DNA from: Escherichia phage A4
Sequence record: ON286972
Reading direction: 5' to 3' (one strand)
Length of the DNA stretch: 64,000 nt
In this document: positions 9,892 through 64,000 of the stretch, piece after piece
Layout of the letters: each line of letters starts with the position of its first letter
How positions within the stretch are numbered: the stretch's first letter is position 1
Program-made: the position numbers and the translations under genes
Notes under the pieces: model-generated
Told to the model about the DNA's origin: nothing
The model's input: only the letters and a program-made list of their open reading frames with translations
Database searches by the model: none

Positions 9892-9902
9892 GTTCATGCT
9901 AT

Positions 9903-9929: not shown

Positions 9930-9963
9930 GCACAGTAATATTAATTAAAAAGGTGCACATGAA

Positions 9964-10497
9964 ATGATTATTAATGCTTACAATGCTGAGGAAATGCAGG
10001 AATTATCTCGTAAAATCAACATTATAGTTCCTTTGCTTAAGGATTGCAGTACTGGTTTGATTCCATCACGAGACATTATTAAAGAAGGATACTACCTACA
10101 GGCAGTCTATAAGGGTGGTACATTTCATCGTTGTCGTGTATTACGTGATGGCCTTCCTGCACTTACACTCATTGGTATTGGTATTGCCGTATGCGGTACG
10201 AACCGTTTGTACTTGAATGAAAAAAATCAAATCATGAATTTGTTTTATACAGGAAAAAGTACTGAATTATATTTTGGTATTCAGAACTGGTGGGATACCG
10301 TAAAGAGTAGTACTATTGAAATCCCGAAATACAATTACAACTCATTTGAAGAGCAGATGTTTCAATTGTCATGTACTGATGACATGTACATGATTCTACG
10401 TCTCTATATGGAGATGCAAATGAACTTCAGAAGTAATTTATACATTGATACTTCAACATTTGAATTCGAAGATGTATTCGTTGATGGTATATTATGA
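9964..10497 (+). CDS. hypothetical protein, FQxS-motif paralog family
   Basis: Motif QMFQLSCTDDMY; C-terminal LYIDTSTFEFE. Confidence 0.55.
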   Translation: MIINAYNAEEMQELSRKINIIVPLLKDCSTGLIPSRDIIKEGYYLQAVYKGGTFHRCRVLRDGLPALTLIGIGIAVCGTNRLYLNEKNQIMNLFYTGKSTELYFGIQNWWDTVKSSTIEIPKYNYNSFEEQMFQLSCTDDMYMILRLYMEMQMNFRSNLYIDTSTFEFEDVFVDGIL

Positions 10498-10721
10498 AGT
10501 ATATTCCAAAACACCAGTACTACAGGATGTGTTCTGACATTTACACAAAATGGAATACATTTCATCCCCTTTTGAAGAAGAGGCGTCCATATCATGATTA
10601 TAAGTTGAATCATTTTCTTGGAACTAATTATCAAGAGGTTGTAATGAAAGATTACATTTTTAACCTTCAGAAATTAATTCAGAATAAAGTTCAAGGAAAG
10701 GGGGAGTCCACGTGGGTATAA
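10494..10721 (+). CDS. hypothetical small protein, FxLGT-motif family
   Basis: Motif NHFLGTNYQEVVMKDYIFNL. Confidence 0.4.
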   Translation: MKYIPKHQYYRMCSDIYTKWNTFHPLLKKRRPYHDYKLNHFLGTNYQEVVMKDYIFNLQKLIQNKVQGKGESTWV

Positions 10722-10918
10722 GACACAGAGACATGCAAGATATTCTTAACCAATACAGTGCTCAAATGTTCACTGCAATCAGGTCTTCCAATCAAAATGA
10801 CGTGTCGGAATTACAGTTACTGATGTACATAGGGACACAATACCAGGAGGCTTCAGTTGAGACGTATATTAAGTACCTATTGGGTATTATAAGGATGAAA
10901 AATGGACAATACTTTTGA
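10712..10918 (+). CDS. hypothetical small protein, FxLGT-motif family
   Basis: Motif LLMYIGTQYQEASVETYIKYL. Confidence 0.45.
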   Translation: MGIRHRDMQDILNQYSAQMFTAIRSSNQNDVSELQLLMYIGTQYQEASVETYIKYLLGIIRMKNGQYF

Positions 10919-11138
10919 ACAAGCACCAGCATCGGATTTTAGTTATGGGTTTATTATAGATATATTTTCTGGTACTGAAGCATCTGATATACCTCTTTAT
11001 ATCTTTGCTAATATGCGTTATATTTTTCGTATTGCAGAGGACAGTGATAAATCTGATATGTCTTTTATGATTAAAAAAATCATATACTTATCGTGCTATG
11101 AATATATGAATGAAATGAGCGAACACTATGACCTATGA
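10902..11138 (+). CDS. hypothetical protein
   Basis: ORF-track ORF; no motif recognised. Confidence 0.35.
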   Translation: MDNTFEQAPASDFSYGFIIDIFSGTEASDIPLYIFANMRYIFRIAEDSDKSDMSFMIKKIIYLSCYEYMNEMSEHYDL

Positions 11139-11676
11139 TGAGATAATTTCTTTTGCAAATAAGTTAAGTACACTAACCAAATTGACGGAAGTAGTACTGC
11201 AAGATGAGCGTATACTTTCTAGGAGTGAGCTAATTGTTTCACAAAACGATTCCATGACGTATATGTCTTTCAGATCGTCAGGCCGAACAATTATTAAGTT
11301 CGGTTCTGTTCCTGAAACAAATGGAAAATTATCTATGTGCACACATAATAATGGGGAATTGTATGGATTAGTGTACAGAAAAGATTCGACAGTACTGAAT
11401 ACTTTCAATGCAGGTGCGAGTGCAGTTGATGTTACATCATTGAGTGATGTTGACAAATACATAGATTTACCACACCTTGAAATTAATGAAGAAAGTGTTT
11501 TTCAGTTAAGTACAGTGCACAATGATATTGAAGTGTTTGGTATTTCTTTATGGAATATCCTTCGTTTAAGGGATGATGCTCCTGTATTTGTATATGCAAA
11601 TTATGAAGACATTGATACTTGTATTGATGAAATGGAGAAATACATTGATCAATTTAAACAAAACTTCCACATTTGA
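11128..11676 (+). CDS. hypothetical protein, FQxS-motif paralog family
   Basis: Motif SVFQLSTVHNDIE. Confidence 0.6.
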   Translation: MTYDEIISFANKLSTLTKLTEVVLQDERILSRSELIVSQNDSMTYMSFRSSGRTIIKFGSVPETNGKLSMCTHNNGELYGLVYRKDSTVLNTFNAGASAVDVTSLSDVDKYIDLPHLEINEESVFQLSTVHNDIEVFGISLWNILRLRDDAPVFVYANYEDIDTCIDEMEKYIDQFKQNFHI

Positions 11677-12223
11677 TATTCACGAGAAAGCTAAGCTACT
11701 TATCAGTACTGCTGAATATTATTACGATACAGTACTGAGTCAATCACCTTCTACATTTCGTGATTTAGTTAAATCATTTAATAAAACACAAAAAGATTGT
11801 GAGCTTTCATATAATGGTGTGAACTTTATGTATATTAAACCATATATGTCAAAGCGTGATTTGATTAAATGCAATGATGATTTCAAGATTGATCGTGATT
11901 TAAATCGTTTCTTCTACGATGTAAGAAGCAATCTGTATCAACTTACATTAAATTCCAGTACTTCTTTCATTATTGGATTGGGTAAGAATTTAGGTACTGG
12001 TACTTCATTTTATAATAAAGGTGAAGTACAAGATGTGGATCTCAATCCAAGTACTGATGTTGCATTCCAACAGGATTTGATTATGGATGTGGATTCAGCA
12101 GCTACATACAGTTCTAATGTTCTGTGCAAGGAATTTCAGAATTCCAAAATTCTTGAGTTATTGTACATTGCGGATTGCAATATACTGTACAAATTTTGTA
12201 CTCATCTGAAGGAGATTTTATGA
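11573..12223 (+). CDS. hypothetical protein, FQxS-like (divergent); start uncertain
   Basis: Motif VAFQQDLIMDVD; long overlap with upstream gene suggests a later start. Confidence 0.45.
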   Translation: MMLLYLYMQIMKTLILVLMKWRNTLINLNKTSTFDIHEKAKLLISTAEYYYDTVLSQSPSTFRDLVKSFNKTQKDCELSYNGVNFMYIKPYMSKRDLIKCNDDFKIDRDLNRFFYDVRSNLYQLTLNSSTSFIIGLGKNLGTGTSFYNKGEVQDVDLNPSTDVAFQQDLIMDVDSAATYSSNVLCKEFQNSKILELLYIADCNILYKFCTHLKEIL

Positions 12224-12588
12224 AAAAAGAAATTAGAATCCAATTCGGTATGAGGAAAAAAGAGGTCATTTGCACACTGAATCATGCGGTCGTGGAAAGG
12301 TTTGATGCATTACAAAAATTCTCCCATTTTGTTCTTGTACTATATGAAAATGGGTCTTTTAAAATCTTCACTTATGATGATTCAAAAAATTATCGTAATG
12401 ATTTTGTAAATCTTACAGTACTGTCAGAAGAGGAATTCTTTCAGGAAAGTACAGTCTGGGATTTACCAGGAGCACCAATTGAATACGTCCGTGCTACACA
12501 GGCAGAAATGATCAAAGCAATGCAGAACTATCCAGAAGATCATATGACTAAGTTTCCTGAATCTATTCATGTAGAGGTTGAGTACTGA
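12220..12588 (+). CDS. hypothetical protein, FQxS-motif paralog family
   Basis: Motif EFFQESTVWDLP; ATG at 12220 with GGAG RBS. Confidence 0.55.
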   Translation: MKKEIRIQFGMRKKEVICTLNHAVVERFDALQKFSHFVLVLYENGSFKIFTYDDSKNYRNDFVNLTVLSEEEFFQESTVWDLPGAPIEYVRATQAEMIKAMQNYPEDHMTKFPESIHVEVEY

Positions 12589-12926
12589 TGGATTTAGTAA
12601 AAGTTACTATAGCCAAACATCAGTACTATGTAATGATTGAGTTAGGTTATAACCACAAGAAAGAACATTTTTATTATCTTACATATGAAAAGAATATGTT
12701 CAAGATAATCACTAATAATTTAGCACGAGATGTATTTCATATTTTTGATTACAGTGATTATAGTGAGGAAGAGTTATTTCAGGAATCATTAGTATGGGAG
12801 TACAATAGAATTGTAGATATTGAAAAGTTAATTAAGTATCAACAACTAATGAAAGATATAATGAATAACTATCCATGTGAACTACAAAGAGAACTGGAAT
12901 TTATTGTCCAATACAAAGAGGTTTAA
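12588..12926 (+). CDS. hypothetical protein, FQxS-motif paralog family
   Basis: Motif ELFQESLVWEYN. Confidence 0.6.
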   Translation: MDLVKVTIAKHQYYVMIELGYNHKKEHFYYLTYEKNMFKIITNNLARDVFHIFDYSDYSEEELFQESLVWEYNRIVDIEKLIKYQQLMKDIMNNYPCELQRELEFIVQYKEV

Positions 12927-12928
12927 TT

Positions 12929-13465
12929 ATGTTAGATTATGACAGAATAGAGAAAGATGATTGGGACGGTACTCACCATTTAAAGGTTGACACTTTTGAA
13001 CACGCTCGCAGTACTGCTCAAGATCTTATGCAAATCCATGAGTTCATTTGTAATAACAGAGAGACTTCTATTTGGGTAAAATCTGACAGATTTATTGATT
13101 CAAGTTATGATTACTTCAGTATTCGTTCAAGAGGTCTGGATGATGACGGGTACAGTGTTGATATGTTCAATATCAACAAATTTAATGACCCTGAATATGA
13201 TCCAAAATACAGCGGTGGCTTTTTAAGTTATTCACCTGACTATGACAGAATAAAGTTCTTTTATGAAGAGGCAGACATTGTTATACCATTTATAGAAGAA
13301 GAACTTACCGAAGAACTGTTCTTTCAGATGAGTACTGTTGACGACCCGTACATAGTTGGTGTACAATTCATGTTCTCTTGGCTTAAACAGAATAACTTCC
13401 CTCCTTTTTATGTTGACCTTACTTTTTACGATCTAATTTGGAATTTTGTTCGTAATCCATCTTGA
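12929..13465 (+). CDS. hypothetical protein, FQxS-motif paralog family
   Basis: Motif LFFQMSTVDDPY; C-terminal FYVDLTFYDLI. Confidence 0.6.
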   Translation: MLDYDRIEKDDWDGTHHLKVDTFEHARSTAQDLMQIHEFICNNRETSIWVKSDRFIDSSYDYFSIRSRGLDDDGYSVDMFNINKFNDPEYDPKYSGGFLSYSPDYDRIKFFYEEADIVIPFIEEELTEELFFQMSTVDDPYIVGVQFMFSWLKQNNFPPFYVDLTFYDLIWNFVRNPS

Positions 13466-13490
13466 CACCTCCTTCTGTGCATGATATAAT
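13462..13490 (+). promoter_or_regulatory. sigma70-like promoter (TTGACA-17-TATAAT)
   Basis: Consensus hexamers with 17-nt spacer upstream of 13522. Confidence 0.5.
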
Positions 13491-13521
13491 CTTTTTCATC
13501 TAATACGAAAAGGATCATATC

Positions 13522-14019
13522 ATGCAATTCAATCCTGAACTCTCATACAGTAATGCTATAACTTTTGCAGACAATTTAATTCGCATTCATAACTTTTTAA
13601 GAGATGTTGAAACTAATTTTGACGTTACATATGTGGACCCCAAAAGTGGAGAGATGTTTACCGATACAGTACAGGTATCCAGTATTCTGTCATTTCGTAT
13701 GCATATGCTATACAGCAAAGTTGAAGCACATAATAATGTAAGAATTCTTGGTTCGTCATTCTTTGGATTCAATGCGAAAGCGAAAGGTACACTTCGTTTT
13801 TATAAAGAATTTTTGGAGTGCGAAGAGATAGATCTCATTGATATCAATGATGAGTGTGAATACTTTCAGTACTGCACAATCTATTCAGAAGATGTGGTTT
13901 TTGCATTAACTGCAATATCTGAATTGCATAAAAAATTACCACCAGATGCCCAATTTTACTTTGACCTTAGTGATTATGATATCATGTTGGATCATATTAA
14001 TCGTGTAGGAGAATTGTAA
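13522..14019 (+). CDS. hypothetical protein, FQxS-motif paralog family
   Basis: Motif EYFQYCTIYSED; C-terminal FYFDLSDYDIM. Confidence 0.6.
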   Translation: MQFNPELSYSNAITFADNLIRIHNFLRDVETNFDVTYVDPKSGEMFTDTVQVSSILSFRMHMLYSKVEAHNNVRILGSSFFGFNAKAKGTLRFYKEFLECEEIDLIDINDECEYFQYCTIYSEDVVFALTAISELHKKLPPDAQFYFDLSDYDIMLDHINRVGEL

Positions 14020-14522
14020 TGCCTGATATTAGCAAACTTAATTACGATGAGATTGAACAGTACGCAAAAGATATCTACGAAATCTATGATGAATTCAAGA
14101 ACAATACTACAGCATTTGGTTCAATGTATTCTCGAAAAAAGAGTCTTAACAGGGATAGGAAAAGTTGTTTAACATATACACAGAAATCAGGCGAAATGAT
14201 GGAAATCTTCTGTGAATCATTTGATGATAGTGAATATAGTGTAGGCATGAATTACCTATCTTACTCAAAAGAAGGTGAAGTTGTAGTAGATTTACGTGAT
14301 GAAAAGGGTCGTAATAAAAAGAGTAGTATCAAGGAAGAAGATGTAAAACTAATTTCTGAAGAAGATTACTTTCAGTTAAGTACTACTATGAATATGTTGG
14401 TATTGAATGTCATAACACTCTACGGTTTCCTCCGATATAAGCATGAAATTGAAACTGACTTCTATTTTGATTTGAATGATTTTGAAGTATGCAAGGGATA
14501 TCTAAATGGGAAAAGTAGTTGA
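14019..14522 (+). CDS. hypothetical protein, FQxS-motif paralog family
   Basis: Motif DYFQLSTTMNM; C-terminal FYFDLNDFEV. Confidence 0.6.
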   Translation: MPDISKLNYDEIEQYAKDIYEIYDEFKNNTTAFGSMYSRKKSLNRDRKSCLTYTQKSGEMMEIFCESFDDSEYSVGMNYLSYSKEGEVVVDLRDEKGRNKKSSIKEEDVKLISEEDYFQLSTTMNMLVLNVITLYGFLRYKHEIETDFYFDLNDFEVCKGYLNGKSS

Positions 14523-14844
14523 TATTGAGTACATGCACGATGGTGATGAAATTTTTATTGTCCAAAAAGAATGCAAGGCTGGACATTGGGTTATCTTCTC
14601 TGTAGAAGAGGATGAATCCATTGTATCTTTTATTTCTACTAAACATAAAGATACGAATTTGGAACTTCTTTACAATTTAAGTGAAGAAGAACTATTTCAA
14701 ATGAGCACTACATTTGAATATGATGTATACGAATTATTAGATGTACAGAATATTTTGTTGGAGTCTCTTCAGAAACTAAAACACAAAGATTTATTTCTGG
14801 TTAAATCATTTATGATGCACAAATTTACACTTGAGGTGGATTAA
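14506..14844 (+). CDS. hypothetical protein, FQxS-motif paralog family
   Basis: Motif ELFQMSTTFEYD. Confidence 0.55.
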   Translation: MGKVVDIEYMHDGDEIFIVQKECKAGHWVIFSVEEDESIVSFISTKHKDTNLELLYNLSEEELFQMSTTFEYDVYELLDVQNILLESLQKLKHKDLFLVKSFMMHKFTLEVD

Positions 14845-15275
14845 TGTATTTTGAAATTATAAAAGTTAAATCAAAGGCTTTACTTAATACAAGATTTCAA
14901 ACGTATGGTTGCACTCATAGTGTAATGCTGGATGATAATAACGAATTGTATTATTCTAAAGTAACACAACCAGTACCGGAGAATAAATTCTATATCTATT
15001 CTCACAAAGATAACTCACAATATGACATTGAGAATCTCGCTGTAATGCCACCTGACGAGCTATTTCAGTACAGCTTAGTATGTCCTTACCGTGGTGATAT
15101 TGACCTTCTCAAGAAGATTCAGGAGGGTTTAATGGACTTTGTGCCTAAGTCTAACCCTGAATATTTTTCAACTAATGTAGAGTTTTTAAAGATCGAAAGA
15201 GAAATTCCTGATTATATGCTTAGTGATGATGAGTTCTACGATAAGCATTTCCCAGGAAAAAAATGGAGAGATTAA
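14844..15275 (+). CDS. hypothetical protein, FQxS-motif paralog family
   Basis: Motif ELFQYSLVCPYRGD. Confidence 0.55.
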   Translation: MYFEIIKVKSKALLNTRFQTYGCTHSVMLDDNNELYYSKVTQPVPENKFYIYSHKDNSQYDIENLAVMPPDELFQYSLVCPYRGDIDLLKKIQEGLMDFVPKSNPEYFSTNVEFLKIEREIPDYMLSDDEFYDKHFPGKKWRD

Positions 15276-15745
15276 TGACATTCCAGGAAGATATTGATTT
15301 TGCAAAAAAGATTTACAAAATTCATCTTATAATGGAAAGTACTGAGTTCCAAAAGCGTTCATATGTCGATAAGATTAAAAGCTGTGATAAAAGTTCATTT
15401 GTCATAAAACTACCCACATTCAAATCCAAAAGAGAGGCCATCTACGCTACGATTTATGATGATTCAGAATACAATCTAATGGATTTGTACATGACCTTTA
15501 CCCCTGGGAATACACTTGTATGTTACTTCCAATGGGAGGAAGAGACAATTGTACTTGATAATATAGGTTCTTATAAGCCTACTGAAGAGACGCACTTTCA
15601 GTTATCTTTGATCTATACAGAAGAAACAGTTCGTGCTATAATGTTGTATTCATATCTCAATAGTGTAAATGCCAGTGCTTTCTATCTGGATTTAGTACAT
15701 CTTGAACTTATTGAGGAATTACTTGCAGAGGAACTTTCTCTATGA
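15275..15745 (+). CDS. hypothetical protein, FQxS-motif paralog family
   Basis: Motif THFQLSLIYTEE; ATG at 15275 overlaps upstream stop. Confidence 0.55.
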   Translation: MTFQEDIDFAKKIYKIHLIMESTEFQKRSYVDKIKSCDKSSFVIKLPTFKSKREAIYATIYDDSEYNLMDLYMTFTPGNTLVCYFQWEEETIVLDNIGSYKPTEETHFQLSLIYTEETVRAIMLYSYLNSVNASAFYLDLVHLELIEELLAEELSL

Positions 15746-54514: not shown

Positions 54515-55306
54515 ATGAAATTTGTCGTAACATCTGATGTGCACGGTGGCACTGATTACCTCCACAGTGGTGATTACAGTGACACAGTACTGATCATTGC
54601 TGGTGACTTTGATGAAGTTAAACGCAGCCGTTATCGTACTGGTATCGAATCACTGTGTAAGCAGTTCAAGAATGTAGTACTGGTTCCTGGCAACCACGAG
54701 TACTACGGTTCGAACATTTACAAAACGCATCAAGTACTGTCCGATATACAAGATGAGTTTCCTAATTTCATCTTTTTGCAAAACAAATTTGTATGGCTGG
54801 ATGGTGTTTTGCTCGTTGGGAGTACTCTGTGGACAGACTTTGACAAAGGTAATTCCATGACGAAGTTTGATGCTCGTCAGAAGATGAACGATTACAAACA
54901 CATCCGTCATGGAACAACATCCGAGCCTTGGCGTAAGAAACTGACACCAGAAGATACTGAGTTCATGCATCACAAAGATAAACAATTTATCAAAAATTCA
55001 GTTGACACAGTACGCTTAATGCAGGATAATGATTTCAAGGTCATCGTGATTACCCATCACGCACCGAGTTTTCAAAGTGTTTCACCAAAATATAAAAACG
55101 ATTCACTGAATGGTTGTTACTGTTCAGACATGGATCAGTACATTGAAGATTTGGGTGCTGATGTTTGGATTCATGGTCATGTTCATAGTAGCTTTGATTA
55201 CCACATCGGTAAGACACGTATCATTTGTAATCCAAGAGGTTACGAATCTTATAGTGGAGCTTGTGAGAATTTCGATTACAATCCTAAATTGGTATTCGAA
55301 ATCTAA
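54515..55306 (+). CDS. calcineurin-like metallophosphoesterase
   Basis: SDVHGG, AGDFDE, GNHEYYG, ITHHAP and GHVH motifs; ATG 54515 after GGAGG RBS. Confidence 0.7.
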   Translation: MKFVVTSDVHGGTDYLHSGDYSDTVLIIAGDFDEVKRSRYRTGIESLCKQFKNVVLVPGNHEYYGSNIYKTHQVLSDIQDEFPNFIFLQNKFVWLDGVLLVGSTLWTDFDKGNSMTKFDARQKMNDYKHIRHGTTSEPWRKKLTPEDTEFMHHKDKQFIKNSVDTVRLMQDNDFKVIVITHHAPSFQSVSPKYKNDSLNGCYCSDMDQYIEDLGADVWIHGHVHSSFDYHIGKTRIICNPRGYESYSGACENFDYNPKLVFEI

Positions 55307-55315
55307 GGGATTACT

Positions 55316-55711
55316 ATGATATATACATTGCATACAAAAGACAAAATGATCGTAATCAATGGAAGTGCTCGTATGTTCCAAAGATATGGTATGCGTCTGG
55401 TGACATATTGTGATAAAGTTCAATTCTATGATGATAAGAAAGGAATCAACTCAGTACTGAAAGATAGGTATCACTATAGTCGTGATATCCAGAGAGCAGA
55501 TGATTTGGATTCTTTTAGTGGTAAAGTGTACGTTGTTGTTTGTGATGATAGTAAAGGTGATGTGTTACCTTTCAGTACTTTTGCATGTAATATGTTCTTT
55601 AGAAATGAACTCCCTGATTCATTAAGAATGATTGAGGTTGATTTTGATACCATACCATGTGGAATTCGTTTAGAATTTCTTAACGCACTGGTATCAATTA
55701 GGGAGTACTGA
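55316..55711 (+). CDS. hypothetical protein
   Basis: ORF-track ORF. Confidence 0.45.
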   Translation: MIYTLHTKDKMIVINGSARMFQRYGMRLVTYCDKVQFYDDKKGINSVLKDRYHYSRDIQRADDLDSFSGKVYVVVCDDSKGDVLPFSTFACNMFFRNELPDSLRMIEVDFDTIPCGIRLEFLNALVSIREY

Positions 55712-56094
55712 TGAAAATTATTACTGTGTACACAATTGTATATAATAACGAAATCAAGTACGTGTTAAATGCAAACTTACACCACACTAGAGGTGAAACA
55801 AAGTTACAACAGAACAGTACTGAAATCTCTCACTACTGGCTGGATGATGATTCAGTTGAAGTGTATATTGATGGTCGTGCTGAATACTATGATGCAGTTT
55901 TCTTTGAAGATTTAGATAAATCGAACGAATTCTTCATTTATGTCAGTACTGACCAATATTATACGCATTCTTTGTTTGACATTACCAACACTTCTGTGTA
56001 TGATACATGTATGGTTAGGTTACTGAAGATAGACCCAACTCTGTACAACAAAGAAACAATTTACGGTTTACTAGATTTTACAAGAAAATTGTAG
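55711..56094 (+). CDS. hypothetical protein
   Basis: ORF-track ORF. Confidence 0.45.
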   Translation: MKIITVYTIVYNNEIKYVLNANLHHTRGETKLQQNSTEISHYWLDDDSVEVYIDGRAEYYDAVFFEDLDKSNEFFIYVSTDQYYTHSLFDITNTSVYDTCMVRLLKIDPTLYNKETIYGLLDFTRKL

Positions 56095-56119
56095 ACAAAT
56101 ACGAACACTGTGATATAAT
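56092..56119 (+). promoter_or_regulatory. sigma70-like promoter with extended -10 (TAGACA-16-TGnTATAAT)
   Basis: Hexamers in spacer upstream of the ClpP-like gene. Confidence 0.4.
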
Positions 56120-56154
56120 ACTCACATCAATGAAACAATAGAGGAAAATATACA

Positions 56155-56850
56155 ATGACTCAACAATTTATGTTTGGTGGTTATGCGAATGGTGAAACAA
56201 CTAACATTTCAATTCCATATGTAGTTGAAAAAGTTAATGGCAACGAACGTACTTATGATCTAGCATCTCGTATGATGCAAGACCGTATCATTTTCCTTGA
56301 TACTGATTTCAACGACCAGATGGCACATATCATCAAGCAACAATTGGTGTGGTTGGATTCTCAAGGTTCTGAACCAATTACTCTTTATATTTCCTCGCCG
56401 GGTGGTAGTGTTCATGCAGGTTTGGGTATTTCTGATATTGCTAAATCTTGTGTATCACCAATCCGCACAGTAGTGATGGGTTATGCAGCATCAATGGGTT
56501 GCTACACACAATCAGTAGTTGGTACTAAAGGTTATCGTCTTGGTGGTAAACGCTCGTACTTTATGTGTCACCAAGTAAGTTCTGGTACACAAGGTCTGAT
56601 CACTGATCAGAAAATTGCACTAAAACACTCTGATGCATTGAACACATTGCTGACGAAAGAAATCGCTGAAGCTGTAGGTGTTTCTCATGAAAAACTACTA
56701 GAAGATGCGGACCGCGATTTGTGGTTGAGTGCAGATGAAGCACTTGAGTATGGTGAACTTGGATTTATCGATGGTATTATCCTTGGTCCACGTAATGAAA
56801 AAGGTCAATACCTAGTTAAACGTCGCGGTGGTGTGGAAGAGTGGGTATAA
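56155..56850 (+). CDS. clpP: ClpP-family serine peptidase
   Basis: RIIFL..LYISSPGG..MGYAASMG (Ser), FMCHQ (His), DADRD (Asp) collinear with ClpP catalytic triad. Confidence 0.85.
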   Translation: MTQQFMFGGYANGETTNISIPYVVEKVNGNERTYDLASRMMQDRIIFLDTDFNDQMAHIIKQQLVWLDSQGSEPITLYISSPGGSVHAGLGISDIAKSCVSPIRTVVMGYAASMGCYTQSVVGTKGYRLGGKRSYFMCHQVSSGTQGLITDQKIALKHSDALNTLLTKEIAEAVGVSHEKLLEDADRDLWLSADEALEYGELGFIDGIILGPRNEKGQYLVKRRGGVEEWV

Positions 56851-56876
56851 TTCAGTACTAAAACTTAAAATATATT

Positions 56877-56901
56877 ATGCCTCACTATGTGGGGCATTTT
56901 C
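56877..56901 (+). terminator. rho-independent terminator
   Basis: Stem ATGCCTCAC-tat-GTGGGGCAT followed by TTTTC. Confidence 0.55.
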
Positions 56902-56913
56902 TAAGGAGTTAAA

Positions 56914-57207
56914 ATGTCAAAGAAACTTGTACGAAACTCTAGCACTGAAGAAGTTGAAATTCTTGATGATTCGGAATTCATCAGTACTGCACTAGAGCAG
57001 ATCAGTACTCAAGCGTTAGCACTAAAAGACATTAAAGAATCAGAAGACCTACTGGTTGGTATGGCTGAAATTCTTGAATTGATGCAAGAAGTTCTTATGA
57101 AGAACAATATTAAACCAATTGATGCGGTGCAATATGCTGCAAATTTGCGAGCCGAACACGGTTCATTCAACGAGAAAAAAGCTGTCAGCACAGAAGATAA
57201 GGAATAA
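56914..57207 (+). CDS. hypothetical protein
   Basis: AGGAG RBS upstream; acidic 97 aa. Confidence 0.5.
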   Translation: MSKKLVRNSSTEEVEILDDSEFISTALEQISTQALALKDIKESEDLLVGMAEILELMQEVLMKNNIKPIDAVQYAANLRAEHGSFNEKKAVSTEDKE

Positions 57208-57211
57208 TACA

Positions 57212-57658
57212 ATGGCTAATGAACAATACAAAGATGGTTATGATGCGTTTAAAAATAAACTAGTATTGTCACCAGAACAACTTAAAATGCAGCATCCAAT
57301 TTTCCGTCAAGGCTATCGTGCTGCACAAGCTGACGCAATGAAGAAAAACAATGTAACCTTCCCAACTACATTGTTTGATATTCCTAAACGTCCTGAAGTG
57401 TTTAAGGCTGATTGGACTGATATTATGGCAGCAACTAAACGACCACGTTTTGCAAAACTACATACCGACGAAGGTAAATGGCTGCTAATGGGTATCATGA
57501 AAGCTGTTGAAAAACGTGCACATACTATTGTCCGTTATCGTGATGTTGTTACTATGGTAGATGAAGCATTTGATATTGTACTTCAGTACGGCTACGATGA
57601 AGGTGTATTAACTGTTGAAGATTGTCAACAATATAACTATACACCGACCGAAAAGTGA
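57212..57658 (+). CDS. hypothetical protein
   Basis: ATG 57212 after AGGAA preferred over overlapping track start 57119. Confidence 0.5.
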   Translation: MANEQYKDGYDAFKNKLVLSPEQLKMQHPIFRQGYRAAQADAMKKNNVTFPTTLFDIPKRPEVFKADWTDIMAATKRPRFAKLHTDEGKWLLMGIMKAVEKRAHTIVRYRDVVTMVDEAFDIVLQYGYDEGVLTVEDCQQYNYTPTEK

Positions 57659-57668
57659 TTAAATAAAT

Positions 57669-57691
57669 GGGAGTCATTGTACTCCCTTTTC
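57669..57691 (+). terminator. rho-independent terminator
   Basis: Stem GGGAGT-cattgt-ACTCCC followed by TTTT. Confidence 0.6.
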
Positions 57692-57706
57692 GCATAGGTA
57701 AATTAT

Positions 57707-58060
57707 ATGAGTAAAGTTTACATTTCTGTTGATATGGATTATTCATCTGATCCTATATGGACTTCTGAAACAGGAGACTATTGGATTAATGATGATCTTG
57801 ATGGATACAAAAAACTTTTTAGTGCAGGTTTAATGCATAGCTTGTATGTTTACCAGCAAATTTGGGAGGCATCCAATTGGAGTTCATATCTGTCACCATC
57901 GGATATGATAAATGTGGAAGCACCTGGGATGTTTATGATCCAACAAGCATCACATATATTAAGTCAAGCTTGTGCAGTACAAATAAAGAAGGAGTTTCCT
58001 GACTGGCACGTCTTTTATTGGTGCGACGCAAGTAACACTAGGAAGGAGGTAATACTTTAA
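57707..58060 (+). CDS. hypothetical protein
   Basis: ORF-track ORF. Confidence 0.5.
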   Translation: MSKVYISVDMDYSSDPIWTSETGDYWINDDLDGYKKLFSAGLMHSLYVYQQIWEASNWSSYLSPSDMINVEAPGMFMIQQASHILSQACAVQIKKEFPDWHVFYWCDASNTRKEVIL

Positions 58061-58569
58061 TGATCTTTAAAATCACTAAAGAAAGCAGTATTGAGTTCTC
58101 AAAAAATATGTTTTTAATAAATGAGTACGCAAAAAATATCAGTACTGAAGCAATAGAAATAACCAAGAAATGGTACGATAATTATTTGAATACAAGAAAA
58201 TGGTATCATAAAATTAATGATTACCAGTGGTTTCTTACTACTATAACTGAGGGAGATGGACTAGTATTAAGATATAATTGTATGAATTTTAATTACATTG
58301 GACTTGATTTCAATTCAACAATTGTTGGTATGGATATTAAAAAAATTAGAAAATTAACATCAATCAATACTAAGGAAATATATGAAGAATCGGGTAAAGT
58401 TTGGGAAGCTGTAACATTTATGATTAAGCACTCGTCATTTATGTATAGAAATTATGATATTAGTATGGATTTACAAAGTCGTAATATCCCATATACTTTA
58501 GATGAAAAACAATATCATCACATGAAAATGTGTGAAGAGATGGTTGAATCTTTAAAATTAAAGGAGTGA
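58060..58569 (+). CDS. hypothetical protein
   Basis: ORF-track ORF. Confidence 0.5.
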   Translation: MIFKITKESSIEFSKNMFLINEYAKNISTEAIEITKKWYDNYLNTRKWYHKINDYQWFLTTITEGDGLVLRYNCMNFNYIGLDFNSTIVGMDIKKIRKLTSINTKEIYEESGKVWEAVTFMIKHSSFMYRNYDISMDLQSRNIPYTLDEKQYHHMKMCEEMVESLKLKE

Positions 58570-58570
58570 T

Positions 58571-59092
58571 ATGAACTATAATCAATTATCACAAGAAGAT
58601 ACTGATATTTGGCTAAAGAACGTAAACAATACGTTGGAACTTGTGCGACAATGTATTTCGGAAGCTGACCGTGTATCAGACGAAGCTAAAGAAAAAACAT
58701 ACAAACACTTTCACCGTAATATCTTCATGAAAATTTATGCACTTACTATGTATAATATGTACAAACCATCTGATATTTTTATTGGGTTGTATAGTGGGGC
58801 GATGTTCACATTAGGTGGGATTTTTTCAGATACTGGTCGTACATTAGAACAAAACGAAAAAGATGTTATCGTGGCAGTTGATAAGATTATGAATAAGGAA
58901 GTGGATTTCATTCTGGAAATCGTTCGTTGCTGGAATGTTTATAGCTCAAAACCATTTGACATTACACAGAAAGATATAGTAGACTATATGCGTATTTTAC
59001 GTACACATCAGATCTGTAAAGAACTATTAACCAATTTAGGGACATATGATGAAACATACAACGTGGTTGAAGATAGCCAGTGTCGTTGCTGA
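58571..59092 (+). CDS. hypothetical protein
   Basis: ORF-track ORF; 3' end overlaps cd start. Confidence 0.45.
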   Translation: MNYNQLSQEDTDIWLKNVNNTLELVRQCISEADRVSDEAKEKTYKHFHRNIFMKIYALTMYNMYKPSDIFIGLYSGAMFTLGGIFSDTGRTLEQNEKDVIVAVDKIMNKEVDFILEIVRCWNVYSSKPFDITQKDIVDYMRILRTHQICKELLTNLGTYDETYNVVEDSQCRC

Positions 59093-59528
59093 GGAAAGTA
59101 AGTGTCTTTCCCAGAAAGTAGGTTGTGTTATTGTAAAGAATAACCGAGTATTGAGTACTGGATATAACGGTACACCATCAAAGCAACCTAACTGTTGTGA
59201 TGTTAATAAACATCTCGTAAACAATGGTCAGTTTCAGGATTGGATTGATGAAGATGCAAAACACTTACATCACGAGTGGAGCAACATTCATGAGATCCAT
59301 GCGGAAATGAATGCATTACTATATAGTTCACCACAAGAACGTCAGGGTGCAACACTTTACACCACACTCCAACCGTGCTATACTTGTTCTAAGTTAATCG
59401 CTGGTAGTGGTATTTCTCGTGTAATTTACGAAAAATCGTATCCTCGCACTCCACCAGAAGCTATTAAAGTACTGGAAGATGCTGGGATTATTGTAAATTG
59501 TATCTATGATAATGGACTCAATAAATGA
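59046..59528 (+). CDS. cd: dCMP deaminase
   Basis: Zinc-binding HAEMNAL and PCYTCSK motifs of the cytidine/dCMP deaminase family. Confidence 0.9.
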   Translation: MMKHTTWLKIASVVAEESKCLSQKVGCVIVKNNRVLSTGYNGTPSKQPNCCDVNKHLVNNGQFQDWIDEDAKHLHHEWSNIHEIHAEMNALLYSSPQERQGATLYTTLQPCYTCSKLIAGSGISRVIYEKSYPRTPPEAIKVLEDAGIIVNCIYDNGLNK

Positions 59529-59785
59529 CAATGGTATATTTGTTTCTAGGTTGTATTGTTATATTTGTATTGTTTGCTATCTATTGTTTAGTTGATACTG
59601 ATTATTCAATGCGTGGTAATAAGAATTATCAAGTACGTTTTTCCCCGCATAATAACAAGTACTACATTGTGAATGTTAGCCACACTACTGGTCGTGAAAT
59701 GAAAGTAACTGGTAGATTTGGCTTTACAATTTACTATGATAACCAAATTGATGTTGATTATGTTGTTGAAAAGTTAAATAAATGA
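59525..59785 (+). CDS. small membrane protein
   Basis: N-terminal hydrophobic helix MVYLFLGCIVIFVLFAIYCLV. Confidence 0.5.
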   Translation: MTMVYLFLGCIVIFVLFAIYCLVDTDYSMRGNKNYQVRFSPHNNKYYIVNVSHTTGREMKVTGRFGFTIYYDNQIDVDYVVEKLNK

Positions 59786-59786
59786 G

Positions 59787-59812
59787 AAAAGGAGCCTATG
59801 GCTCCTTTTTTA
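59787..59812. terminator. bidirectional rho-independent terminator at convergent gene junction
   Basis: A-run, stem GGAGCC-tat-GGCTCC, T-run; sits between + strand block and minus-strand genes. Confidence 0.65.
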
Positions 59813-60187
59813 TTATGCTTTTTTACGTAGGATGTATTGTCCATTATGTAATTTAATTTTGTGAATCATGTACATAGTGCAAAACCCTTCAATACCTGCT
59901 TCTTCATCTTTCAATTTAATGAAGAAAGTATTATCTCTTAGGCTTTCTACAAGGCTTTCATCTGAATCTTCGAAATTCATGATATATGAATCTTTATTTC
60001 TATACACCATCTGAACATATTCATAAACCTTACCGCTTTCATCGATTAGATCATAAGTATGTGCTGAACGTTGTTTTAAAATATATAGTTTACCAAGAAT
60101 AGCTGCTCCATTAATTTTAGCACCAGTAATTTCGATACCATTAATAGAAAAAGGAAGTCTTCCGGTTAATGCAATTGGTTTACCCAT
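59813..60187 (-). CDS. hypothetical protein, paralog of the N-terminal domain of the Big_2 protein
   Basis: MGKPIALTGRLPFSINGIEITGAKINGAAILGKLYILKQRS.. aligns with N-termini of 60245..62413 and 62517..63020; start at internal Met. Confidence 0.55.
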   Translation of the reverse strand: MGKPIALTGRLPFSINGIEITGAKINGAAILGKLYILKQRSAHTYDLIDESGKVYEYVQMVYRNKDSYIMNFEDSDESLVESLRDNTFFIKLKDEEAGIEGFCTMYMIHKIKLHNGQYILRKKA

Positions 60188-60244
60188 TATTATACTTCTC
60201 CAAGTAAAGTGCATGATAATTTTCATGCACTATATTATTAAAAA

Positions 60245-62413
60245 TTAAGCACTGATTGTTACAGTTGCAGTATCAGTTTTATTGCCATTCGCAGTAGTCA
60301 CTGTAATGACTACAGTACCTTCTTCTAGAGCAGTTACTAATCCATCATCACTAATAGATACTTTAGTAGGTTCATCTGCACTATAAGTTACTGATTTGTT
60401 AGTTGCGTTAGCTGGAAGAACTTCTGGAACTAGTTGAACTGTTTTAGTACCTGATAGTGAAAGATCAGTGGCTTTAGGTGTTAAACCAACGCTGGATACT
60501 GGTACTGGAATATTAACAGTTACAGCACATTTTGCAGTTTTTGCACCATCAGTAGTTTTTACAGTGATATCAGCAGTACCGTTTGCAACAGCAGTGATTA
60601 AACCACTTGCACTAACAGTTGCGACCCCAGCAGCAGAAGTACTATAAGTTACTGCTTTGTTAGTTGCATTAGCTGGTAGTACAGTTGGTGTTAGTTGTTG
60701 AGTTGCACCAACAGATGTTAAAGTTGCTGTTGTTGGAGAAACAGAAACACTAGCTACAGGAACTGGGATTGACACAGTAATGACACCTTGACCTGTTTTA
60801 CCACTTCCATCAGCGGCAGTTGCGATAATGTTTGCAGTACCGTTAGTTAACGCAGTTACAACACCAGTACTAGCATCAACTTTCGCTACAGCAGGTGCAC
60901 TAGAAGACCATGTTACAGCTTTATTAGTTGCGTTAGCTGGAAGAACTTCAGCAGCCATTGCTTGAGTTGCGTTAACAGCAGTCAATGTTTTAGTTGCTGG
61001 AGTAACATTAATAGTTGTTACTGGAACTGGAATTGCTACAGTTACTGCACAAACTTTACTAAAGCCACCATCAGCAGTAGTAGCCGTGATATTAGCAGTG
61101 CCATTCGCTACCGCAGTGATTAAACCACTTGTACTAACGGTTGCAACACCAGCAGCAGAAGTTGCGTATGTTACTGCTTTGTTACGAGCATTAGCTGGTA
61201 GAACAGTTGCAGTTAATTGCTGTGTTGCACCAACAGAAGTTAATGAAGCGGTTGCAGGTGTTAGGTTAATACCAGTTACTGGAATCGTCACATCAATAAT
61301 TGATTGTGCGGTTTTTTCACCATCAATAGTTGTTACTGTAATAGTGGCAGTACCATTATTAACAGAAGTTACTAAACCGTCATCATCAACTTCTGCTACT
61401 GTAGGTGCAGAAGATTCATAACGAACTTCCTGATTTGATGCAGTTCTTGGTAGTACCGTTGCTGTTAATGGTTCATTTGCACCAATAGTAGTGAATGTAT
61501 ATGTTTCAGGTGTTAACGTAACACCAGTTACTGCTGTTTGAACTTTAATAGAAGAAGTATCAGTAAATGAACCATCTTCAGTTGTTGCAGTAATAGTAAC
61601 ATCACCATTGGATACACCTGTTACCAACCCAGAATCTTTATCAACTGTTGCAACGGATGGAGCAGATGAAGCCCATGTAACTTTCTTGTCTGTTGCTGAG
61701 GCCGGAGTAACTTCAGCTAACAATTGTTGAGTTGCCCCAACGTTTACAGTTGCAGTTTTAGGAGAAACGGTAACACCAGTAACACCAGTACTGACAACGA
61801 TAGAACACACATCTGTGAAATCACCATCGTGAGTTGTTACGGTTACATCAGCATTGCCATTTGCAAGTGCAGTTGCTAGACCTGTTTGAGCATCAACTTC
61901 AACGATTGTAGGAGCAGATGAAGAGTAGGTTACTGCCTTGTCTTTTGCATTAGATGGAACTACTTGGGCTGATAGTTGTTTTGTTGCACCAACTTTAAGA
62001 GATGCATCTTTGGGTGTAATTACAACACCAGTTACGGGGACATCAGCATTAACATAATCGCGTTTTACGATACGACCATTATTTAATTTAATAACACGAC
62101 CCATATAAAGCATAGTATATCCCATGCTAATACCATCATCAACATAGATCATGAATGAATTGTCTTGAACCATATTAATTGCGTCTGCTGGTTCAACAGA
62201 ATTTGGAATGTCGATACCACGAGTATCATACCAACGCATGGAAACTTTGTAATAGATATCACCATTATCATTGATGAGATCATACACGTTACCGGAACGT
62301 TGACGGTTAATATATAAAGTTTCGGTTAACACCTTACCATCGATTTTAGCGACGGAAACTTTAATACCACCAATACCAAAAGGCAATTTACCTTCACTAG
62401 ATATTGCTTTCAT
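60245..62413 (-). CDS. Ig-like (Big_2) repeat protein with unique N-terminal domain, likely virion-associated
   Basis: ~125-aa N-terminal domain followed by ~7 repeats of ~80 aa (..GATQQL.A.VLPANATNKAVTY.SSA..VA.V..SGL.TAVANGTA.IT..); TATAAATA upstream. Confidence 0.75.
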   Translation of the reverse strand: MKAISSEGKLPFGIGGIKVSVAKIDGKVLTETLYINRQRSGNVYDLINDNGDIYYKVSMRWYDTRGIDIPNSVEPADAINMVQDNSFMIYVDDGISMGYTMLYMGRVIKLNNGRIVKRDYVNADVPVTGVVITPKDASLKVGATKQLSAQVVPSNAKDKAVTYSSSAPTIVEVDAQTGLATALANGNADVTVTTHDGDFTDVCSIVVSTGVTGVTVSPKTATVNVGATQQLLAEVTPASATDKKVTWASSAPSVATVDKDSGLVTGVSNGDVTITATTEDGSFTDTSSIKVQTAVTGVTLTPETYTFTTIGANEPLTATVLPRTASNQEVRYESSAPTVAEVDDDGLVTSVNNGTATITVTTIDGEKTAQSIIDVTIPVTGINLTPATASLTSVGATQQLTATVLPANARNKAVTYATSAAGVATVSTSGLITAVANGTANITATTADGGFSKVCAVTVAIPVPVTTINVTPATKTLTAVNATQAMAAEVLPANATNKAVTWSSSAPAVAKVDASTGVVTALTNGTANIIATAADGSGKTGQGVITVSIPVPVASVSVSPTTATLTSVGATQQLTPTVLPANATNKAVTYSTSAAGVATVSASGLITAVANGTADITVKTTDGAKTAKCAVTVNIPVPVSSVGLTPKATDLSLSGTKTVQLVPEVLPANATNKSVTYSADEPTKVSISDDGLVTALEEGTVVITVTTANGNKTDTATVTISA
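60250..62040 (-). repeat. tandem Ig-like domain repeats within the Big_2 gene
   Basis: Recurrent stretches such as cagcagcagaagt and tactgctttgtta in successive units. Confidence 0.6.
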
Positions 62414-62449
62414 ATACTTTCCTTTATAAATTGTATTGTAGTGTTATAT

Positions 62450-62457
62450 TATTTATA
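62450..62457 (-). promoter_or_regulatory. T4 late-promoter-like TATAAATA box
   Basis: Reverse complement of + strand TATTTATA, ~40 nt upstream of the Big_2 start. Confidence 0.35.
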
Positions 62458-62481
62458 TTATACCAAAAGTATTTTAGGATT

Positions 62482-62503
62482 AAAAAAGGAGTCCGAAGAC
62501 TCC
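62482..62503 (-). terminator. rho-independent terminator for the upstream minus-strand gene
   Basis: Stem GGAGTC-cgaa-GACTCC with A6 on + strand (T-run on minus) just 3' of the gene ending at 62517. Confidence 0.55.
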
Positions 62504-62516
62504 TTAAAATATAAAG

Positions 62517-63020
62517 TTATTGGAAACGAGCATACGGTGGAAATCTGGTTTGGTCAGGCCAATCTTTCGGAGAGAAGTAAGCAGTGAATTGCATTTTATC
62601 ATTTGAATAAAGAACAAAATCATCTGGCTTTATTATAACTTTAGACAACGAATTTGGCTCCACGTTCGTTCTTCTGAAAATTATTTCACCATTATGTAAT
62701 TTTATTTTATTACTTTGATATTGAATACCAAAACCATACTTATTATTAATAGCATCAGCTTCTTTTATGCAAAATGTATTATTTGCTAAAGATTTAGCAA
62801 TTTCAGCATCGTCATCATCATACTACAATGTTGATTTATCTTTATTTCTACCTGTGATTTTTATCTTGAAATTTTCAGATATTAAATCATATGAATCGAA
62901 TGTTCTTTGTTTTATAACATACAATTCTTTAACAAATACTTGCCCTTCTATCTTTGCAGCAGTAACCTGCAATCCACCTATAACAAATGGAAATTGATCT
63001 AAGCCAGCTATTGGTTTCAT
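62517..63020 (-). pseudogene. paralog of Big_2 N-terminal domain, interrupted by in-frame amber (TAG) codon
   Basis: Track ORF 62823..63020 stops at TAG (+ strand 62823-62825); same frame continues to TAA at 62517-62519 and stays collinear with paralog 59813..60187 across the stop. Confidence 0.55.
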
Positions 63021-63154
63021 AACATCTCCTTACCTTAAAAATGGGATTGTAAACTGCCTCCCAATATGATACCATAGTTCAAATGGTCAATTGGTAAATC
63101 AATGAACTTAACAAAAACACTTGATACTACAGTCATAATTGTTCAGTTTTGCAC

Positions 63155-63183
63155 TTGACATAATTGATCAATTATTGTACTAT
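63155..63183 (+). promoter_or_regulatory. sigma70-like promoter (TTGACA-17-TACTAT)
   Basis: Hexamers in divergent intergenic region upstream of 63219. Confidence 0.35.
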
Positions 63184-63218
63184 TATTTATGTTCCTTAAC
63201 TCAAATCCGAGGTAATCA

Positions 63219-63824
63219 ATGAAACGAATCTTGAAAGAGATTGTACAAACCGTTGTTTTAATCGCTGCATTAAACTTTCCGGCAGCGGCAGAAGTTTCAA
63301 AAAAATCATCAGTTTTTCTATTAAATGAACATGTTGTGTCAATTGATGGTGAACTAAATGATGAAACTGTACAAGAAGTGAAGAAGTTGTGGAAAGAAAC
63401 AAGATTTAAAATTTTAACAATTACATCACCTGGTGGAGATTTTGATGCAGGATTAGATTTGGGATTGTTTGTGGCTGCTAAAAAGTTAACTGTTTATGTC
63501 CCAAAGCAATGTAATTCGTCTTGTAGTCTGGTTTTTTTCTCTGCATCATCTGAACGTAGGGATATGAGTGATACCGCAGTGATGGGTTTACATAACATCT
63601 CACTAGTATCTACGAATGGTGCAGATCCAGATACGACATTCGTTTCAGTTAGACAGTTGATGGAGTTTACACATCAAGTCTCAACTAAAGTTGGGTATCT
63701 TTTTACACTGTACGCACATAACGGTATCCCCGCTGAAACACTCATTGATATCAGTACTAAACATGGTGAGGATATCGTTGTCTTACGAAGAACAGATCTA
63801 GTTAAATGGGGAATTATTCAATAA
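63219..63824 (+). CDS. secreted ClpP/SppA-fold serine-peptidase-like protein
   Basis: Signal-peptide-like N-terminus (..VVLIAALNFPAAAEV); core ILTITSPGGDFDAGLDLGLF..CNSSCSLVFFSAS resembles the ClpP/S49 fold. Confidence 0.55.
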   Translation: MKRILKEIVQTVVLIAALNFPAAAEVSKKSSVFLLNEHVVSIDGELNDETVQEVKKLWKETRFKILTITSPGGDFDAGLDLGLFVAAKKLTVYVPKQCNSSCSLVFFSASSERRDMSDTAVMGLHNISLVSTNGADPDTTFVSVRQLMEFTHQVSTKVGYLFTLYAHNGIPAETLIDISTKHGEDIVVLRRTDLVKWGIIQ

Positions 63825-63950
63825 AAGTTGTATTTTTTATGAAGCAATGATATAATCCTAATACTAATTCATGATTTTGGTTAAGGGTGGTGTACTGCCA
63901 CCCGATTTTAAGATATAATGGTTGCACATTAAACAACCAAGGAAACAAAA

Positions 63951-64000
63951 AATGACAGAATTATCACATCTTCAAGGCTGGACAGAGTTCATCTTCTATG
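63951..64000 (+). CDS. hypothetical protein (3' partial at window edge)
   Basis: ATG 63951 after AAGGAAA; frame open to window end. Confidence 0.3.

Follow-up and report, generated by a model that had tools for sequence, protein, structure and literature searches.

Two ClpP-fold genes in a jumbo coliphage genome

The window analysed here, a stretch of 64,000 nucleotides (nt) from Escherichia phage A4, carries two plus-strand genes, ORF1 and ORF2, which can both be related to the ClpP peptidases. The first encodes a phage ClpP, and the second a far more divergent ClpP-fold protein with a putative export signal. The reading put forward here, with a probability of about 60% for both parts taken together, is that ORF1 is the peptidase subunit of a phage-encoded ClpAP-type protease and that ORF2 is an exported, ATP-independent ClpP-fold serine peptidase. 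The window is part of a Rak2-like (Asteriusvirus-type) jumbo coliphage genome. Its positions 55000-64000 share 83.5% nucleotide identity with Escherichia phage UE-S1, a jumbo coliphage of the genus Asteriusvirus, and show weaker nucleotide matches to PBECO4/121Q-type and other Rak2-like phages. The main features are as follows, with the basis of each in brackets (aa, amino acids).

56155..56850, plus strand: ORF1, phage ClpP of 231 aa (Pfam and PDB matches, triad conservation)
56446..56547, plus strand: stretch of ORF1 with two clade-specific pocket substitutions (alignment of phage-clade and bacterial ClpPs)
63219..63824, plus strand: ORF2, ClpP-fold protein of 201 aa (profile and fold comparison)
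63219..63290, plus strand: signal-peptide-like N-terminus of ORF2, residues 1-24, MKRILKE / IVQTVVLIAALNFP / AAA (predicted cleavage between AAA and EV)

ORF1 encodes a divergent phage ClpP

The assignment of ORF1 relies on concordant profile, structural and residue-level matches. The Pfam family CLP_protease (PF00574) is matched with an expectation value (E) of 7.7e-42 and 143.7 bits (cut-off 20.2), from residue 29 to 209 of ORF1 and over positions 2-179 of the 182 of the profile. More than 100 ClpP chains of the PDB are matched at E 1e-37 to 1e-31, the best at 1.4e-37. When ORF1 is aligned with the E. coli enzyme and 16 further ClpPs, the catalytic columns hold Ser113 (in AASMG, nt 56491-56493; S97 in E. 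coli), His139 (in MCHQ, nt 56569-56571; H122) and Asp188 (in DADRD, nt 56716-56718; D171). The first-pass annotation, made from the letters of the window, had read 56155..56850 as a ClpP that keeps its Ser, His and Asp; profile and structure-sequence alignments agree with it, all three residues falling in catalytic columns.

In database searches, ORF1 falls within a compact clade of phage ClpPs that share 60-91% identity with it and are carried on contigs of about 350 kb; bacterial ClpPs come next, at an identity of 47% or less. The triad and the R170-D171 pair are invariant in 64/64 ClpPs of this clade, and the axial-loop residues are kept in most of them: S21 in all 64, P4, V6, E8 and R15 in 63 each, E14 in 61 and R22 in 60. 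With E. coli ClpP, ORF1 shares only 35% identity, whereas other bacterial ClpPs share 53-63% with the E. coli enzyme, which argues that ORF1 is not a recent capture from the host. ORF1 also scores below the equivalog cut-offs of NCBIfam, with 156.6 bits against 308.6 for TIGR00493 and 158.1 against 249 for PRK00277. As judged from its sequence, it belongs to a divergent ClpP subfamily and is not an equivalog of cellular ClpP.

Several features set the phage clade apart. An N-terminal extension of 18-19 aa precedes the IPYVVE axial-loop motif, in a position resembling that of the E. coli propeptide, and a C-terminal extension of about 20 aa starts at residue 210 and ends in RRGGVEEWV. The clade also has a three-residue insertion (EYG-ELG-FIDG), and HQVSSGT where other ClpPs have HQP(L/S)GG.

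The head maturation protease label

Proteins of this kind often bear another name in databases. PHROG 94, 'head maturation protease', matches ORF1 at E 1.2e-44, and several GenBank/RefSeq records (e.g., NC_027364.1 and NC_019526.1) give this label to the ClpP or to the ORF2 homologue. Taken literally, it would mean that ORF1, and perhaps ORF2, is packaged in proheads and cleaves scaffold and capsid proteins there, and one ClpP peptide has been reported by mass spectrometry (MS) in CBB virions. Both the PHROG match and this peptide weigh against a ClpAP-type function for ORF1. On the ClpP-related head-maturation model NF045542, however, ORF1 reaches only 52.4 bits, where 120 are required, a third of what it obtains with cellular ClpP models (156.6 bits). 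In addition, portal, scaffold and capsid genes do not adjoin ORF1, and the putative export signal of ORF2, presented below, is at odds with the cytoplasmic assembly of proheads.

In Rak2-like phages, the capsid and portal genes are accompanied by a distinct T4 gp21-type 'prohead core scaffold and protease'. In RaK2, this gp21-type prohead protease is gp092, detected in virions by MS; in phAPEC6, it is gp227c, which adjoins the scaffold, major head and portal genes and was also detected by MS. CBB_255 and a Sharanji homologue are further gp21-type prohead proteases. ClpP is absent from the RaK2 virion table and from the text and tables on phAPEC6. A prohead-protease role was thus rejected for ORF1, on the separate gp21-type enzyme in the relatives' head module, the model score and the gene location, and for ORF2, on its export signal. 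This explanation is largely refuted, and the chance that it holds is very slim.

Because these phages have their gp21-type prohead protease elsewhere, the label 'head maturation protease' is a mis-annotation, likely a systematic one carried over from PHROG 94. The ClpP-related head maturation proteases (NF045542; PHROG 94, 133 and 2976) do resemble ORF1 in being phage-encoded and in having the ClpP fold. ORF1 differs from them, and from T4 gp21, by its score (52 bits against 120) and by its location outside the head module, where the gp21-type enzyme does the head job. The result for ORF1 therefore corrects a widespread mis-annotation. An effector rather than a prohead protease had already been favoured for ORF1 from the sequence alone, and the separate gp21-type protease, found in the relatives' head module and by virion MS, is in line with this choice. 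Iyer et al. 2021 (PMC7824862) list the ClpP of group 2.2 jumbo phages among the peptidases probably used against the host.

A probable unfoldase partner for ORF1

Searching by tblastn with E. coli ClpX yielded no true ClpX among the listed Rak2-type records. The weak AAA+ match that was obtained, in a RaK2-like Klebsiella phage, is a ClpA homologue of 769 aa, comprising an N-domain and two AAA+ modules. Such ClpA homologues (736-769 aa in the relatives) are present in 101 phage records at E<=1e-100, including all 32 Escherichia-phage relatives (UE-S1, at 283782-285992, and ph0011 among them), RaK2, GAP32, CBB and others. They are 40-44% identical to E. coli ClpA over the full length and keep both the Walker A and the Walker B motifs. 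At the IGL position of the ClpP-docking loop, they carry the tripeptide IGV (RaK2), IGM (UE-S1), LGM (GAP32) or IGF (PA5oct). ClpB-type disaggregases are not known to carry an IGL-type ClpP-docking loop; the phage homologues, which have this loop, thus look like ClpP-docking unfoldases. Since the relatives encode a ClpA-like, two-ring unfoldase with a docking loop, a phage-encoded ClpAP protease is the likely unit, and the phage ClpA is likely to be a more obvious partner for ORF1 than host ClpX or host ClpP.

The ClpP side of this interface is modified too. Two E. coli positions, F82 and L114, which are presumed here from ClpP-ADEP and ClpX structures to line the unfoldase-docking pocket, are occupied in ORF1 by Ser98 (nt 56446-56448) and Gly131 (nt 56545-56547), respectively. 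The L114 position is Leu in 39 of 43 bacterial ClpPs and Gly in 61 of the 64 phage-clade ClpPs, and the F82 position is Y, F or L in bacteria and mostly N, S, G or C in the phage clade. Other pocket residues are kept in ORF1, namely Y62, I90 (as V) and M92. Because loop tripeptide and pocket are both changed, a co-adapted, perhaps partly orthogonal, ClpA-ClpP interface is suggested. Two points go against the ClpAP assignment at this level: the pocket substitutions might just as well weaken or abolish the docking of an unfoldase, and the ClpA homologue gene is not within the 64-kb window, its presence in the source genome being deduced from the relatives. In UE-S1, about 86 kb separate the ClpA gene from clpP.

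Another way of looking at the same residues is that ORF1 docks host ClpX or ClpA, or forms mixed rings with host ClpP, thereby redirecting host proteolysis and leaving the phage ClpA as a stand-alone chaperone. Co-assembly with host ClpP or ClpX had been raised in the first-pass annotation. The conservation of the axial loop and of Y62, I90/V and M92 would be compatible with this, and heteromeric ClpP1P2 with one docking-incompetent ring is known and is found among the structural matches. The distance between ORF1 and E. coli ClpP (35% identity, against 53-63% for bacterial ClpPs) speaks against host partners, as do the two pocket positions changed clade-wide, and the docking loop that the phage ClpA keeps, and that ClpB-type chaperones lack, points to a cognate ClpA-ClpP pair. 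A function with host partners, by docking or in mixed rings, is thus considered improbable, and a ClpAP pair made by the phage is preferred.

On this preferred reading, ORF1 resembles the bacterial ClpAP system (MEROPS S14; E. coli) by its domain, its Ser-His-Asp triad, its axial-loop residues and its R170-D171 pair, and the relatives' partner is likewise a two-ring ClpA homologue with an IGL-type loop. It differs from bacterial ClpP by its low identity to the E. coli enzyme (35%), its terminal extensions, the three-residue insertion, the L114->G and F82->S changes and the HQVSSGT motif. Other jumbo phages, in the wider Rak2/PA5oct group, likewise encode Clp unfoldases and ClpP of their own, for example, PA5oct (ClpX, ClpA and ClpP) and Atu_ph07 (seven Clp-family genes). 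ClpP of the PA5oct type is only about 35% identical to ORF1, and PA5oct has a true ClpX, unlike the listed Rak2-type records.

Fold and family of ORF2

ORF2 is much harder to place by sequence. PHROG 26024 ('protease') matches it end to end at E 2.4e-60, while Pfam and NCBIfam assign it no family and return only sub-threshold matches to CLP_protease, NfeD1b_N and ClpP models. Weak CLP_protease matches are found in 11 of 22 members of the ORF2 family, the best at E 2.4e-7. Distant bacterial relatives also have no Pfam family and only sub-threshold ClpP-related matches in NCBIfam. A direct sequence search of the PDB with ORF2 gave nothing meaningful, and paralogy between ORF1 and ORF2 is not detectable by BLASTP at E 1e-5. 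When a ClpP profile was run against the 362 six-frame ORFs of the window, ORF1 (4e-108) and ORF2 (1.3e-4) were the only matches.

Profile-profile and structural comparisons give a clearer answer. Aligned by hhalign, the ORF2 family and a ClpP alignment match with 92.6% probability (E 4.5e-7) over 157 columns. Adding the relatives retrieved by an exhaustive profile search to the alignment (22 sequences) led to a usable AlphaFold2 model of ORF2, with a predicted local distance difference test score (pLDDT) of 90.4 and a predicted template modelling score (pTM) of 0.79. Foldseek comparison of this model with the PDB places ClpPs first, at E 6e-9, a probability of 1.00 and template modelling scores (TM) of 0.6-0.7. 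In a viral structure library, the RaK2 orthologue comes top (TM 0.80), followed mostly by ClpP-like proteins. The core of ORF2 had initially been described as divergent and ClpP/S49-like: the ClpP part of this description holds, from hhalign and Foldseek, and the S49 part was given up, as there is no conserved Lys.

The model also matches the RaK2 protein H6X4C5 (BFVD; 210 aa, 'putative peptidase') at E 7.8e-8 and TM 0.64, so that RaK2-type phages may hold a third ClpP-fold protein.

The family is large and mostly bacterial. At E<=1e-3, the exhaustive profile search returned no fewer than 1,757 cluster representatives, of which only 41 remain at E<=1e-10. Most of the 1,757 are 'hypothetical proteins' of bacteria, and the members that were scanned matched no Pfam or NCBIfam model. 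In the ten bacterial-relative clusters looked up, names are absent or read 'hypothetical protein' (Ferrimonas, Aliiglaciecola). Among phages, tblastn finds ORF2 homologues in 47 records (32 from Escherichia, nine from Klebsiella, four from Salmonella, one from Erwinia and one from Xanthomonas phages), a narrower spread than that of ClpP and ClpA. Literature searches on COG3904 and on periplasmic ClpP-like proteases provided no description of the family.

Active site, cysteines and predicted export of ORF2

The residues expected of a ClpP-fold peptidase are partly present. ORF2 has an SPGG oxyanion motif (residues 70-73, from position 63426), the sequence Cys98-Asn-Ser100-Ser-Cys102 (63510-63524) and His125 (63591-63593). 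In the hhalign alignment, Ser100 shares a column with the nucleophile of ClpP, His125 with its catalytic His and Arg114 with its invariant Arg. Within the 22 nearest full-length relatives, S70, G72, G73, C98, S100, C102, H125, N126 and P171 are invariant; S70, G72, G73, C98, S100, C102 and H125 still are when 16 distant bacterial relatives are added. The column of the catalytic Asp holds no conserved residue in the ORF2 family, which thus has no complete Ser-His-Asp triad. Based on the fold and residue alignments, ORF2 can be seen as a protein of the ClpP fold in which an SPGG oxyanion motif accompanies a probable Ser-His dyad.

An S49/SppA-type Ser-Lys enzyme was also considered and rejected. 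SppA (S49) and the membrane protease NfeD/1510-N use a Ser-Lys dyad, whereas ORF2 has an invariant His and no conserved Lys; no Lys is invariant in 22 close or in 20 distant relatives, which makes the chemistry of SppA and NfeD inapplicable. The Pfam S49 model matched one of the 22 family members, at E 0.072.

The nucleophile is framed by cysteines. A C-x-S-x-C motif, commonly C(L/F/A/I)SSCAN, is found in 141 of the 144 top relatives shorter than 400 aa, and the only two cysteines of ORF2 are those of this motif. A pair of invariant Cys that flank the nucleophile at -2 and +2, in a protein that appears to be exported, suggests a disulfide across the nucleophile turn.

The N-terminus of ORF2 is arranged in n, h and c regions like a Sec signal peptide, with a hydrophobic 12-mer of mean Kyte-Doolittle value 2.1 and a predicted cleavage site between AAA and EV, as assessed by a heuristic that combines charge, hydrophobicity and the AXA site. 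Of 143 ORF2 family members, 114 have such a hydrophobic 12-mer near the N-terminus, against 0 of 119 ClpPs scored in the same manner. In close relatives, AXA sites are located near residue 24 (ASA, AAA or SNA, each before E), and lipobox-like sites occur in 24 family members. The signal-peptide-like N-terminus noted in the first-pass annotation is, thus, recovered with this heuristic. ORF2 is like bacterial ClpP in its fold and in the positions of its Ser and His; it differs by its putative signal peptide, the missing Asp, the C-x-S-x-C motif and the impossibility of an ATPase partner in the periplasm.

Several observations weigh against an exported, active ORF2 peptidase. On Pfam CLP_protease, ORF2 scores 15.0 bits, below the threshold of 20.2, and a first model, built from seven sequences, was poor (pLDDT 45). 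Without the Asp, the protein might be poorly active or inactive; its N-terminal helix might stay uncleaved and serve as a membrane anchor, and the Cys98-Cys102 disulfide is a guess from motif geometry. The chromosomal neighbourhood of one bacterial relative (Aliiglaciecola) offered no functional hint. ORF2 could then be a dead or non-proteolytic ClpP-fold protein, either a ClpR-like binder or scaffold or a crotonase-type protein acting on small molecules, or it could be anchored in the inner membrane instead of being soluble in the periplasm. The empty Asp column would suit the first version and a retained hydrophobic helix the second; the invariance of Ser100, His125 and the oxyanion glycines, and the AXA sites of close relatives, fit better with a cleaved, catalytic protein. 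Such a non-catalytic or anchored state is regarded as rather doubtful, and a soluble Ser-His peptidase in the periplasm is retained as the preferred reading for ORF2.

Transcription signals and adjoining small genes

The signals found around the two genes, and the small genes that follow ORF1, are the following.

56092..56119, plus strand: sigma-70-like promoter, TAGACA-16-TATAAT with a TG extended -10 (11/12 consensus match)
~56877..56905, plus strand: 9-bp hairpin AUGCCUCAC-UAU-GUGGGGCAU, then UUUUCU (-15.1 kcal/mol for the 53-nt stretch, z -3.75)
56914-57207, plus strand: gene of 97 aa, phrog_16159 (directly after ORF1, conserved position)
57218-57658, plus strand: gene of 146 aa, phrog_16190 (second gene after ORF1, conserved position)
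63155..63183, plus strand: sigma-70-like promoter, TTGACA-17-TACTAT (consensus match only, 10/12)
63885..63910, plus strand: GC-rich, terminator-like hairpin GGGUGG-UGUACU-GCCACCC, then GAUUUU (z -2.3 for the 66-nt stretch)

The promoter-like site of ORF1 lies 36 nt upstream of the gene. Promoter-like sites number 33 in this A+T-rich region, where 39.6 are expected; they thus show no enrichment as a class, and each of them is weak evidence when taken alone. The hairpin 3' of ORF1 is possibly an intrinsic terminator, perhaps a leaky one; having failed the stricter T-run rule of the terminator scan, it lends moderate support to a terminator specific to ORF1. Furthermore, clpP is followed by the same two small genes in UE-S1, RaK2 and two metagenomic relatives, so that ORF1 may not be a one-gene transcription unit. 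From this conserved adjacency, the small genes may be co-transcribed with clpP and could encode cofactors or regulators. ORF1 had been credited with a promoter and a terminator of its own; the promoter-like site stands, with its 11/12 match, while the terminator is moderately supported and the unit is maybe longer. ORF2 is preceded by a GAGG ribosome-binding site.

Possible roles during infection

In the mechanism proposed for ORF1, the gene would be expressed early, behind its sigma-70-like promoter, and the product would assemble into the usual double heptameric barrel. This barrel would dock the phage ClpA through its IGM-type loop, and the resulting ClpAP would degrade selected cytoplasmic proteins, of host or phage origin, during infection. 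The pocket changes (L114->G, F82->S/N) and the changed loop tripeptide might partly insulate the phage pair from the Clp partners of the host. ORF2, in turn, would be exported by Sec and cleaved after Ala24 by leader peptidase; in the oxidising periplasm, its two cysteines would then be joined by a disulfide that spans the nucleophile turn, and its Ser-His dyad would cleave an envelope or periplasmic substrate early in infection. Envelope remodelling or the exclusion of other phages are possible purposes.

A stronger version of this scheme would make ORF2 and its relatives an undescribed family of exported ClpP-fold peptidases with a disulfide-held Ser-His dyad, one member of which Rak2-like jumbo phages would have captured to cleave a target in the envelope or periplasm early in infection. 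It would also make the phage ClpP-ClpA pair an orthogonal degradation machine, with a rewired docking interface, insulated from the Clp system of the host. These two statements, taken jointly, are tentative and less probable than their negation.

Regarding novelty, about 70 phage records already carry an annotation for ORF1, which has also been treated in the literature. What is new is that the head label is explicitly rejected, that a loop-bearing phage ClpA is proposed as the partner and that pocket changes specific to the clade are recognised. No experimental study of the probable phage ClpAP machine, annotated for more than a decade, was found in the literature. ORF2 has so far been labelled 'protease' or 'hypothetical', and literature searches found no description of its export signal, Asp-less Ser-His site, C-x-S-x-C signature or large bacterial family, nor any phage-made, periplasmic, ATP-independent ClpP-fold Ser-His enzyme. 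The findings on ORF1 point to a complete phage-encoded ClpAP machine, the substrates of which could be host defence or regulatory proteins, and the altered docking interface would make the two proteins an orthogonal protease-unfoldase pair of natural origin. For ORF2, a defined set of motifs (signal peptide, SxGG, C-x-S-x-C and His) makes the bacterial family directly testable.

Genomic context

The window has a G+C content of about 33%, carries nearly all of its genes on the plus strand and contains no tRNA genes. Near ORF1 and ORF2, Pfam and PHROG matches identify an RNA ligase, a polynucleotide kinase and a NinI-like Ser/Thr phosphatase, with an ATP-dependent DNA ligase, a metallophosphoesterase and a dCMP deaminase as further neighbours. 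Two Ig-like (Big_2) virion-type proteins are encoded nearby on the minus strand. With ligases, a kinase, a phosphatase, a phosphoesterase and a deaminase around it, ORF1 does sit among early-type enzymes, away from morphogenesis genes, as had been noted at the outset.

Gene order around ORF1 and ORF2 is kept in RaK2, which belongs to a different genus, and in two metagenomic contigs, with ORF2 homologues that are 29-32% identical. It runs from DNA ligase through metallophosphoesterase, ClpP, the ~95-aa gene and the ~146-aa gene to, a few genes further, dCMP deaminase, and continues with an Ig-like gene (minus strand), the ORF2 homologue, NMN-adenylyltransferase/Nudix, NAMPT, Sir2 and PhoH. The order between ligase and PhoH is similar in UE-S1, with no NMN-adenylyltransferase or NAMPT annotated in the stretch examined.

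Just downstream of the ORF2 homologue, RaK2 (L003, 9685-14667) and one metagenomic relative (L012, 10697-15868) encode an NMN-adenylyltransferase-type cytidyltransferase, NAMPT and Sir2. The cytidyltransferase and NAMPT constitute an NAD salvage pair, and the cytidyltransferase is fused to Nudix in the metagenomic relative, which also carries an Acb1-like gene. The window ends before this NAD-salvage/Sir2 block.

The minus-strand Big_2 pair is embedded in an otherwise plus-strand block of early-type enzymes. It comprises, at 59813-62413, a protein of 722 aa, in which seven Big_2 Ig-like domains are recognised, and a protein of 137 aa that is paralogous to its N-terminal domain, and it is bounded by a strong two-way terminator-like hairpin at 59785-59811. 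A third paralogue of the N-terminal domain common to these two Ig-like virion-type proteins lies at 62518-63020, also on the minus strand. It consists of 65 aa, an in-frame TAG (62823-62825) and then 101 still-homologous residues, including the start of a Big_2-like domain, and is a pseudogene or an amber-interrupted gene. In UE-S1, only about 360 bp are found at this place.

Finally, small paralogous families occur among the short plus-strand ORFs at 5063-15745, with a five-member family at 7590-9439 and 15263-15745 and several pairs or triplets.

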